Shown: positions 38,356 through 38,892 of the stretch, one piece after another
Position numbering within the stretch: the first letter of the stretch is position 1
Layout of the letters: every line of letters begins with the position of its first letter
DNA from: Candidatus Nealsonbacteria bacterium
GTDB lineage: Bacteria > Patescibacteriota > Minisyncoccia > Minisyncoccales > JBGOYX01
Length of the DNA: 64,000 nucleotides
Direction of reading: 5' to 3'
NCBI GenBank assembly: GCA_963820485.1
Contig: CAWFZW010000003.1
Coordinates: 567 to 64,566, forward strand
The notes under the pieces: model-generated
The model's database searches: none
What the model saw: only the letters and a program-made list of their open reading frames with translations
Told to the model about the DNA's origin: nothing
Position numbers and translations under genes: made by a program

Positions 38356-38411
38356 TCTATACGAAGATTAAAAATCTTCGTCGAGCCCGACCCTTACGTA
38401 TAAGGCTTTTT
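38356..38411 (-). promoter_or_regulatory. second copy of the tRNA-upstream module (GGGTCGGGCTCGAC, hairpin, TATAGA)
   Basis: See 878-930. Confidence 0.4.
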
Positions 38412-38413
38412 TG

Positions 38414-38480
38414 TTGCGGGGCCCGGATTTGCACCGGGGTCTTGCCGACTTTTGAGTCGGCACAAGATACTACTTCTATA
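38414..38480 (-). pseudogene. 3' fragment of an initiator-like tRNA paralogue (lacks the 5' acceptor strand)
   Basis: ..TATAGAAGTAGTATCTTGTGCCGACTCAAAAGTCGGCAAGACCCCGGTGCAAATCCGGGCCCCGCAA. 38427-38480 repeats 38812-38865. Confidence 0.7.
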
Positions 38481-38502
38481 ACTTGAAAATATTCTTCTTT
38501 TG

Positions 38503-38573
38503 TTGCGGGGCCCGGATTTGCACCGGGGTCTGGGGCTTATGAGACCCCCGAGGTACTACTCCTCCACCCCGCG
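38503..38573 (-). tRNA. initiator tRNA-fMet (anticodon CAT)
   Basis: CGCGGGGTGGAGGAGTAGTACCTCGGGGGTCTCATAAGCCCCAGACCCCGGTGCAAATCCGGGCCCCGCAA. Has the C1:A72 mismatch and a GGGG/CCCC anticodon stem. Close to E. coli tRNA-fMet. Confidence 0.85.
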
Positions 38574-38810
38574 ACGTGAAATTAAACCTTTTATAAACTT
38601 TCTACTTTTTTGTGATTTTATATAATTTTCTCTTTTCATTGCATCACCTCTATTTAAAAACGACTCAGTATAAACTATTTTCCAAATTCCTTTATTTTTT
38701 GTAAAATTACTTCGATTTTTATTGTGTCTTTCTAATCTTTCTATAATATTTTTTGTATGTCCTACATAATATTTTCCTTTAATATTTTCAAGAATATAAA
38801 CATAATACAT
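38556..38810 (-). CDS. GIY-YIG nuclease family protein (small, UPF0213/YhbQ-like)
   Basis: MYYVYILENIKGKYYVGHTKNIIERLERHN.. Start moved from GTG (38819) to ATG (38810). The last 6 codons and the stop lie inside tRNA-fMet. Confidence 0.8.
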   Translation of the reverse strand: MYYVYILENIKGKYYVGHTKNIIERLERHNKNRSNFTKNKGIWKIVYTESFLNRGDAMKRENYIKSQKSRKFIKGLISRRGVEE

Positions 38811-38872
38811 AATTTGCACCGGGGTCTTGCCGACTTTTGAGTCGGCACGAGATACTACTTCTCTACCCCGCG
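38811..38872 (-). pseudogene. 5' fragment of the initiator-like tRNA paralogue, cut in the T-loop by the GIY-YIG gene
   Basis: CGCGGGGTAGAGAAGTAGTATCTCGTGCCGACTCAAAAGTCGGCAAGACCCCGGTGCAAAT, then TATGTATTATG (start of the GIY-YIG gene). Confidence 0.7.
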
Positions 38873-38892
38873 AAGAAATATCTTAACACAAA

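Follow-up and report, generated by a model that had tools for sequence, protein, structure and literature searches.

How does a gene for an 84-residue nuclease come to lie among fragments of a transfer RNA (tRNA) gene, with its reading frame running into an intact tRNA? The question is raised by a 64,000-nucleotide (nt) stretch of Candidatus Nealsonbacteria DNA (positions 567 to 64,566 of contig CAWFZW010000003.1, assembly GCA_963820485.1; hereafter the window), in which an open reading frame (ORF) for a GIY-YIG nuclease stands in a tRNA operon between two incomplete copies, X5' and X3', of a tRNA-like sequence that we call X. At about even confidence, we interpret the locus as a long-resident copy of a tRNA-anchored GIY-YIG cassette, whose behavior would be explained at the level of DNA. 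The class of such cassettes is apparently large and undescribed.

Read on the minus strand, the region forms a single tRNA operon, in which a promoter-like site is followed by X5', the ORF, the initiator tRNA (tRNAfMet), a spacer, X3', tRNA-Met, tRNA-Asp and a terminator-like hairpin (Table 1). The promoter-like site likely serves the whole X5'–ORF–tRNA operon, and the inverted repeat is the operon's probable end. X5' comprises the acceptor 5' strand, the D arm, a substitute hairpin (H), the T-stem 5' strand and the T loop, while X3' comprises the D arm, H, a complete T arm and the 3' acceptor strand. The ORF has no stop codon of its own; its frame enters tRNAfMet, whose acceptor strand, D stem and D loop supply the final 5 codons and a TAG stop in an overlap of 18 nt. 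A first-pass annotation of this DNA had already described the four-part layout (X5', the ORF with tRNAfMet, the 21–22-nt spacer, and X3'), and all of these parts are present on the minus strand, including the direct repeats and the intact initiator tRNA, which both ARAGORN and Rfam recover; its count of 6 codons plus stop inside the tRNA becomes 5 sense codons plus stop.

The two pieces of X are linked by a 54-nt direct repeat that is 96% identical and whose 18-mer core, GCCGACTCAAAAGTCGGC, occurs twice in the window vs 0.05 expected from shuffles. At its 5' end X5' also shares a direct repeat of about 25–26 nt with tRNAfMet (88% identical), and the last 34 nt of X3' are 100% identical to the tRNAfMet 3' end and trailer, an exact repeat that shows concerted evolution of X3' with the functional tRNA. 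Since the 5' end of X5' and the 3' end of X3' both match tRNAfMet, X is a tRNAfMet paralogue that differs essentially in its anticodon arm. In the first-pass annotation, a cassette of ORF and tRNAfMet had, by insertion or recombination, recently split an intact 74-nt gene X and left the 54-nt duplication behind, so that deleting the DNA between the repeats would rebuild a complete gene. The cloverleaf does form: when the X5'-side acceptor strand is joined to X3', ARAGORN reports a 74-nt 'tRNA-?(caaa)', and this, with the near-identity of the repeats and a geometry such as Campbell-type integration would produce if the circle bore an internal piece of the gene, speaks for such an insertion. The rebuilt anticodon loop, however, has 8 nt or, in the minimum-free-energy fold, 6 nt on a 7-bp stem, and neither drawing yields the canonical 7-nt loop on a 5-bp stem. 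Both X5' and X3' escape detection by ARAGORN and by Rfam at E<=10. X5' lacks the 3' strands of the T stem and the acceptor, and X3' lacks the acceptor 5' strand; the same is true of all fMet-type relatives.

No complete cloverleaf with both acceptor strands occurs among the ~20 copies of X at 13 related Parcubacteria loci, which were collected through ORF homologues and through pattern scans of GTDB genomes and JGI metagenomes (loci fetched for comparison carry L numbers). A strict pattern scan of GTDB representative genomes for an intact or empty X matched only the L006 genome, which has no intact X; a looser scan of JGI metagenomes returned 7 true loci and 1 chance match, none with an intact X; and a scan of viral contigs returned nothing. 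An empty X site was likewise absent from these loci and scans, an outcome that the first-pass annotation had itself named as counting against its reading. Recent insertion is also at odds with lineages that have X5'–ORF–fMet without X3', with an ORF-less relative (L008) that has X3' and carries tRNAfMet in the place of X5', and with an arrangement older than a deep divergence, so that we consider it quite improbable. The hairpin that distinguishes X turns up again in pseudo-copies of other tRNAs, as described below; X is a component of the cassette and not its target gene, and we infer that the 54-nt repeat reflects the homology of the cassette's two pseudo-tRNA arms rather than a target-site duplication in a once-intact gene. 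What survives of the earlier proposal is that the ORF lies among tRNA-derived direct repeats and that recombination is likely; X was no recently hit gene, and the tRNA said to be disrupted is kept intact in its functional copy.

Other roles for these sequences were considered and rejected. A frameshift-suppressor or Leu tRNA is not a tenable identity for X, since an acceptor stem is absent from every copy and the loop is not constant (CAAA, TATA or CAGA, with unrelated loops in other lineages). Long-range pairing between X5' and the 3' half of tRNAfMet, which would make the ORF a 'giant T-loop insert', was ruled out on L003 and L006, because their X5' T-stem 5' strand has decayed and no longer complements the fMet T stem. 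A 12-nt inverted repeat (I2) between the spacer and ORF codons 6–10 is at chance level in AT-rich DNA and is not kept in L012, and complementarity between the spacer and the hairpin loop, present in L014 and L008, is not conserved in L012 or L013.

The ORF-less allele shows which unit comes and goes. L008 belongs to a near-identical organism, with the same 168-aa gene upstream and MreB and GatA almost identical to those of the window. It has neither X5' nor the ORF; instead its strong promoter (TTGATA-17-TATAAT, immediately before tRNAfMet) and the flank ATATTTCTT, which is common to the window and L008 and is followed in both by CGCGGGG, run directly into an ordinary tRNAfMet at the X5' position, then the homologous spacer and a 5'-truncated X3'. 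The two close relatives thus show a presence/absence polymorphism at one locus. The D stem of the L008 tRNAfMet is GAGA/TCTC, as in the window X5', whereas the window tRNAfMet has GAGG/CCTC, which fits deletion by a crossover within the 25-nt X5'/tRNAfMet repeat; and since the outgroups carry the ORF, L008 is most simply a precise loss. What is gained or lost, then, is not an insert in X but a unit lying ahead of the initiator tRNA and made up of the hairpin, the T-arm remnant, the ORF and the tRNA 5' segment. The ORF-bearing relatives show no consistent protective polymorphism, and their functional tRNA is intact. As a separate observation, L008 holds a second, distant UPF0213-type GIY-YIG ORF (9286–9437) that starts 99 nt downstream of tRNA-Asp in the same operon and was not found in the window.

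The arrangement is old. Nine lineages bear the ORF (the window, L001/L012, L002/L015, L003–5, L006/7, L009, L013, L014 and L036), at 65–94% amino-acid identity to the window protein, and they share the gene order MreB–GatC–GatA–(168–193-aa protein)–ORF–tRNAfMet–tRNAMet–tRNAAsp. X5' adjoins the ATG and the ORF enters tRNAfMet in 9 of 9. X3', and hence the 54-nt repeat, is limited to one ORF-bearing subclade (the window, L001/L012, L013 and L014), truncated elements of the X3' type being present in L001/L012, L013/L011, L014 and the ORF-less L008; L002, L003 and L009 have X5'–ORF–fMet only, and L006 carries a tandem unit, X5'–ORF–X5'–(internally deleted ORF)–tRNAfMet. Between lineages, the rate of synonymous substitution (dS) in the ORF is ~0.4 to >1, which is saturated, and the ratio of the nonsynonymous to the synonymous rate (dN/dS) is 0.06–0.32. 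Saturated dS combined with low dN/dS at one syntenic site indicates that the arrangement is old and that the protein is under purifying selection. A collapsed or mis-joined tandem tRNA array, the artefact that the first-pass annotation had offered as an alternative, is scarcely credible: the region is repeat-rich and the window's gatA and a pyrD-like gene show apparent frameshifts, but the window-type four-part order is found in L001, L012, L013 and L014, which are independent, diverged assemblies from different projects, with compensatory differences among them.

The encoded protein matches Pfam GIY-YIG (PF01541) at E 1.2e-15 and 58 bits (cut-off 22.6), in agreement with its initial identification, and no second Pfam domain is found in its 84 aa. 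The catalytic residues Y5, Y15, R25, H29 and E61 are invariant in 116 aligned sequences. A profile search of the PDB ranked 1zg2 (5e-17) and 1ywl (2e-12) highest, with SLX1 at 3.5e-4 to 1.4e-2 and I-TevI at 6e-3, and the AlphaFold2 model (predicted local distance difference test score 86.5, element order E-E-H-E-H-H) found its best Foldseek matches in 1zg2, SLX1 (7cq3, root-mean-square deviation 2.0 Å over 70 columns), 1ywl and the UvrC N-terminal domain. Both comparisons place the protein with the minimal UPF0213/SLX1-type GIY-YIG domains, ahead of I-TevI and UvrC. Its C-terminal tail differs between relatives in frame and length (a protein of 84 aa in the window, of 81 aa for L014 and of 113 aa for L002, whose frame crosses the whole tRNA), so that read-through into the tRNA is incidental: the ORF proper extends to the tRNA boundary and takes its stop codon from the tRNA. 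SLX1 is a structure-specific endonuclease on branched DNA (PMC1564403; PMC7017083), and the prokaryotic Slx1-like proteins are minimal and mostly vertically inherited, with no established role, although fusion of such a domain to a TrmH-type tRNA methyltransferase led to the proposal of a role in RNA metabolism (PMC1564403). Neither the window ORF nor its 168-aa neighbor had a record in exact-protein look-ups.

Hairpin H, which stands in place of the anticodon arm in X, has the consensus T(G/C)CCGAC-loop-GTCGG(C/G)A. Pairing in its 7-bp helix reaches 99% over 14 copies of X; five of the pairs never vary, and the other two have undergone compensatory double changes (G-C to C-G and C-G to G-C). 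H is almost invariant over a divergence at which the synonymous sites of the adjoining ORF are saturated, and this comparison of sequences marks it as a selected element. In the window clade the loop of H still resembles the fMet anticodon loop (CTCATAA+G vs CTCAAAAG, CTTATAAG and CTCAGAAG), and the replaced part is essentially the stem. A hairpin substitution of the same kind is seen at a second operon tRNA in L013, where a partial duplicate of the elongator tRNA-Met 3' half (~225–300, contig reverse strand) has its T arm replaced by TCCCGATATTTATATCGGGA and adjoins no ORF. Separately, in L001/L012, the acceptor 5' strand of X5' (GCGCGGGG) can pair with an upstream CCCGCGC to give CCCGCGC-TCA-GCGCGGG, and a second hairpin, GGGGTCACGC-TTA-GCGTGAC, lies further upstream; both are lineage-specific and stand in front of the cassette.

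The constancy of H bears on another account, in which the ORF is a vertically inherited UPF0213 housekeeping or repair gene, placed in a tRNA operon by chance, and the pseudo-tRNA pieces are neutral leftovers of tRNA-paralogue duplications. A fixed syntenic site under purifying selection is what one finds in the window clade, prokaryotic Slx1-like proteins are mostly inherited vertically (PMC1564403), and the protein has no match among the PHROGs phage-protein families and only marginal matches in PADLOC. Neutral debris, however, would not preserve the sequence or the pairing of a 20-nt hairpin over a time in which synonymous sites become saturated. The account is further opposed by the presence/absence polymorphism between near-identical genomes, by tandem arrays of diverged copies, and by the recurrence of the hairpin stem and the ORF-into-tRNA junction at five tRNA species in different phyla; we judge it decidedly unlikely.

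That recurrence extends the design to tRNA-Lys, Val, Asp and Glu genes in other phyla, where a UPF0213/SLX1-type ORF enters a tRNA piece, the pseudo-tRNA arms are copies of whichever tRNA lies there, one arm gives way to a TCCCGA...TCGGGA hairpin, and tandem arrays occur. At tRNA-Lys (L016, 54% identity), 394-nt tandem units, each running from a tRNA-Lys 3' part through a terminator and the ORF to a tRNA-Lys 5' part, are joined via the perfect palindrome TCCCGATGCATCGGGA. At tRNA-Val in a Bacteroidota-like organism (L026–L035; 24 contigs), there are three tandem 78-nt units, each composed of tRNA-Val 1–28, TCCCGATTGCATCGGGA exactly replacing the 17-nt anticodon arm, and a truncated T arm, one unit having a compensated TCACGA/TCGTGA stem; after the units come the genuine tRNA-Val, then a terminator, then the ORF, and last a pseudo-tRNA-Val that is truncated at its 5' end and contains the hairpin. 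There are two ORF units in L029, where the upstream one of the tandem ORFs (357–605) reads MYFVHIL, with His at the place of the otherwise invariant first catalytic Tyr, and has probably been inactivated. In L043 (Ignavibacteria), two tandem ORFs, 65% identical, lie downstream of tRNA-Asp, and each runs on into a 3' half of tRNA-Asp that carries TCCCGACTAGTCGGGA instead of the T arm, the frame terminating within this hairpin. At tRNA-Glu (L038, Roizmanbacteria), the ORF overlaps the first 23 nt of the tRNA, and a duplicate of tRNA-Glu 1–11 and hairpins lie upstream.

Traces of the same association are found in the wider protein family, to which 33,333 clusters at 50% identity match at E<=1e-3. 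In 269 members, translated tRNA and hairpin DNA is over-represented in the tails at the C terminus and in the extensions at the N terminus: R[TAK]SR tails number 28 vs 1.6 in shuffles, and T-loop peptides occur in 11 of 39 N-terminal extensions vs 1.7 in shuffles. The GRPD/E and ISSVGIPMHRD tails were decoded on DNA (L043, L016), and back-translation of the tail GSEHPDCKSGGS, guided by the L026 sequence, gives a D-arm strand, the TCCCGA...TCGGGA hairpin and the variable loop. We advance a broader proposal at somewhat less than even confidence: the window would hold one member of a very large unrecognised class of minimal elements, spanning ~10^4 protein clusters in the candidate phyla radiation, Bacteroidota, Ignavibacteria and others, in which an ~80-aa SLX1-like GIY-YIG gene is bound to a specific TCCCGA...TCGGGA hairpin, and copies of the neighboring tRNA are used as portable homology arms to insert, amplify and be lost.

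Rfam, including runs at a permissive E-value, found only tRNA in the locus, the whole window, L016 and L029, with no intron, transfer-messenger RNA or other family. No integrase or recombinase is present, as the first-pass annotation had noted, and the only genes between the repeats are the 84-aa ORF and the tRNA. Candidate plasmid and phage origins were also tried: tblastn searches with two family members found nothing in plasmids and only two weak Staphylococcus matches in phages. Full-text literature searches on GIY-YIG, UPF0213, COG2827 or YhbQ proteins in connection with tRNA genes or pseudo-tRNA yielded SegB and superfamily papers, none describing this architecture.

In the mechanism that we propose, the cassette would be expressed from the tRNA promoter within a pre-tRNA transcript, and its tRNA-derived arms would serve as substrates of homologous recombination, giving loss (L008), amplification (L006, L016 and L029) and concerted evolution. 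The L008 loss, the tandem and deleted unit of L006 and the concerted evolution of the arms are indeed the products expected from recombination between tRNA-derived repeats. Recombination would be started by the SLX1-like structure-specific nuclease, through a nick or break in tRNA DNA that can form a hairpin or cloverleaf. The breakpoints lie mostly at cloverleaf helix boundaries (0/1, 7/8, 26/27, 43/44 and 60/61), which would suit such a nuclease acting on the hairpin or cloverleaf DNA of heavily transcribed tRNA genes. The hairpin, with a stem kept across phyla, would most simply be the protein's cis-recognition site or a cleavage-immune substitute for the cut arm. By homologous recombination the cassette would persist and, probably, pass from a tRNA locus to its homologue in another genome, tRNA genes being a source of homology that strains and species have in common; L043, where diverged paralogues are stacked at a single tRNA, is a further pointer to transfer.

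Several of the same facts could be read at the level of RNA. Transcribed pseudo-tRNA mimics with an inert hairpin might control or partner a GIY-YIG protein that acts on tRNA or pre-tRNA, whether as an antitoxin-like substrate mimic, a decoy, or a processing or stability element; we regard this reading, all variants taken together, as unlikely. It accommodates the compensatory pairing in the hairpin, including the TCACGA/TCGTGA unit, the purifying selection on a vertically retained ORF, and the link to RNA metabolism proposed from the Slx1-like/TrmH-type fusion (PMC1564403). It would also suit the presumed co-transcription of the units with the ORF from the tRNA promoter, the fact that the mimic always copies the local tRNA, and the order of three 78-nt units, tRNA, terminator and ORF in the Bacteroidota relative, which resembles a type III toxin–antitoxin layout. 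The pseudo-tRNAs, however, are variably truncated, so that they have no acceptor stem and make poor mimics, and several hairpins (L016, L043 and L002) are perfect DNA palindromes with 2–4-nt centers, which are poor RNA loops and typical DNA sites. Moreover, every GIY-YIG enzyme characterised to date is, to our knowledge, a DNase. The window shows no array, nor does a terminator separate X5' from the ORF, and both the placement beside a genuine tRNA and the pile-up of paralogues in L043 would be left unexplained.

A number of observations weigh against the DNA-level cassette model that we prefer. The protein has no DNA-binding domain that would give homing-type specificity, its conserved part being the ~78-aa catalytic core only, and a nuclease aimed at the tRNA gene would cut its own host, in which the functional tRNA stands intact beside the cassette. 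Over a long divergence in the window clade, the cassette has been retained at a single locus under purifying selection, with one loss and no gain observed, which a domesticated or host-useful gene would explain as well as a selfish one would. The side of the ORF on which the hairpin lies, and the arm that it replaces, differ between lineages. An unrelated structured RNA of the window has GC-rich GTCCCGAC stems too, so that part of the stem similarity could be a general preference. For RTSR/RASR, the commonest tail class, the tRNA decoding comes from protein sequence alone, and the sampled viral (IMG/VR) UPF0213 homologues form another branch with no tRNA or hairpin nearby, so that the tRNA link holds for a subfamily and not for the whole family. 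Finally, the roles that we give to the nuclease and the hairpin, and transfer itself, are what we infer from sequence comparison.

Among known systems, the nearest precedent is T4 segB, a free-standing GIY-YIG homing endonuclease gene in a phage tRNA cluster (PMC2330249). The likeness consists in a GIY-YIG ORF among tRNA genes that is inherited with the flanking tRNA region and is present or absent among close relatives. SegB is larger than the window protein, has a DNA-binding part, and cuts a defined site in the ORF-less phage. Unlike this phage gene, the window ORF encodes a minimal 84-aa SLX1/UPF0213 domain without a PHROG match, lies in a cellular genome, and is framed by pseudo-copies of the local tRNA that carry the hallmark hairpin. 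The closest matches in sequence and fold are UPF0213/prokaryotic Slx1 proteins (BH0048, 1zg2; EF2693, 1ywl; also YhbQ of E. coli and YazA of B. subtilis), which share the minimal domain and the Y/Y/R/H/E residues; they are described as vertically inherited, putative repair or structure-specific nucleases (PMC1564403, PMC7017083), and unlike the described members the window type is tied to a tRNA gene and a hairpin, an association of which our literature search found no report.

Integrase-borne tRNA islands and prophages likewise show direct repeats of tRNA segments (here 54, 34 and 25 nt), keep the tRNA functional, and can pile up. Unlike them, the cassette has no integrase and spans only ~300–400 bp; its duplicated segment may be a 5' or internal part of the tRNA, and the displaced copy carries a conserved hairpin arm. 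Type III toxin–antitoxin systems of the ToxIN type consist of tandem RNA repeats, a terminator and the gene of an endoribonuclease toxin, which processes the repeats and is inhibited by them. The three tandem 78-nt units, terminator and nuclease ORF of L026/L029 are similarly arranged and presumably co-transcribed, whereas the units copy a neighboring tRNA, the genuine tRNA lies within the array, and the protein is a GIY-YIG domain and not of the ToxN type; the window, moreover, has single units and no terminator before the ORF. Split and circularly permuted tRNA genes are known from Nanoarchaeum and Cyanidioschyzon (PMC3978253), and there too the pieces of one tRNA-like sequence are separated in the genome. 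Unlike those, the window pieces overlap by 54 nt rather than forming complementary halves, neither has its partner acceptor strand, bulge–helix–bulge and leader-complement features are lacking, and the genome is bacterial.

Table 1. Coordinates of the parts of the GIY-YIG-bearing tRNA operon and of its repeats in the window.
Feature	Position	Strand	Basis or remark
Promoter-like site TTTACA-17-TAAGAT, extended TG	38880–38908	minus	7 nt upstream of X5'
X5', pseudo-tRNAfMet 5' piece, 62 nt	38811–38872	minus	ends 1 nt before ATG
54-nt direct repeat, upstream arm	38812–38865		family D1; 52/54 identical to downstream arm
Hairpin H in X5', TGCCGAC TCAAAA GTCGGCA	38828–38847	minus	in place of 17-nt tRNAfMet anticodon arm
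GIY-YIG ORF, 84 aa, UPF0213/SLX1 type	38556–38810	minus	Pfam, PDB profile, AlphaFold2/Foldseek
Initiator tRNA-fMet (CAU), intact	38502–38573 (ARAGORN); 38503–38573 (Rfam, 52.8 bits)	minus	C1xA72 mismatch
34-nt exact repeat	38409–38442 = 38498–38531		family D3; T arm, 3' acceptor strand, trailer
AT-rich spacer, 21–22 nt, between tRNAfMet and X3'	38481–38501	minus	homologous in window, L012, L008, L014
X3', pseudo-tRNAfMet without 5' acceptor strand	38414–38480	minus	sequence and repeat comparison
54-nt direct repeat, downstream arm	38427–38480		family D1
Hairpin H in X3'	38443–38462	minus	identical to X5' copy
Elongator-type tRNA-Met (CAU), next operon gene	38283–38355	minus	ARAGORN, Rfam
tRNA-Asp (GUC), final operon tRNA	38192–38272	minus	ARAGORN, Rfam
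Terminator-like inverted repeat, then T run	38132–38164	minus	inverted repeat I1

The surroundings of the locus offer further observations in their own right. The initiator tRNA of the window clade (that of the window and the fMet genes of L001–L015) lacks the GG pair in its D loop (AGUAGUA) and T-Psi-C in its T loop (UGCAAAU) and has C or A at position 1 opposite A72, so that its elbow is non-canonical and conserved across relatives of the window. An element of ~50 nt, ..AAGGGTCGGGCTCGAC(G/A)AAGATTT..AATCTT(C/T)GT(A/T)TAGA, is present in two copies (38356–38405 and 878–930, minus strand) that end exactly at the 5' ends of the elongator tRNA-Met and tRNA-Trp; it occurs in 0 of 44 fetched loci, the relatives having other inserts or none at that place. 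The structured-looking element with GTCCCGAC/GTCGGGAC stems like the cassette hairpin is ~135 nt long and has two copies (1285–1432 and 8290–8437, minus strand), one directly upstream of rpmF (L32) and the other upstream of tRNA-Tyr, tRNA-Thr and rpmG (L33). RNAalifold gives it 41 pairs, 5 of them compensatory between the two copies, it has no Rfam match, and it may be an undescribed leader or non-coding RNA.

Among the neighboring genes, the two that flank the locus had been thought to carry HEPN motifs; the 168-aa protein has only a sub-threshold Pfam match (HEPN_Cthe2314, E 0.022) and the 269-aa ORF has none. The 168-aa gene belongs to the conserved host synteny, being present with or without the cassette. 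gatA (39402–40833) is split into ORFs of 424 and 56 aa, where L008 has a single ORF of 477 aa, and the pyrD-like gene (35552–36134) into ORFs of 174 and 30 aa, both by frameshifts that reflect either assembly error or pseudogenes. Just downstream of the tRNA operon, a 116-aa ORF (37616–37966, minus strand) is a truncated GrpB gene that matches only the C-terminal two thirds of GrpB (profile positions 49–159 of 159).

Prokaryotic Slx1/UPF0213 proteins such as YhbQ and YazA are among the most widespread small nucleases without an established function, and a systematic link to tRNA genes and a hairpin would give the first concrete handle on the role of a large subfamily. If the cassette moves via its tRNA arms, it would be an extremely small selfish element (~300–400 bp) that relies on the universality of tRNA instead of an integrase or a DNA-binding domain. 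Such elements would account for many pseudo-tRNA fragments, 'tRNA-undetermined' calls and broken short contigs near tRNA genes, as well as for the odd N- and C-terminal extensions of annotated 'GIY-YIG nuclease family proteins'. If instead the pseudo-tRNA is an RNA partner, the pairing of a tRNA mimic with a nuclease would itself be of a new kind. In either case, the hairpin, the 84-aa protein and the ORF-less allele open the question to direct tests.

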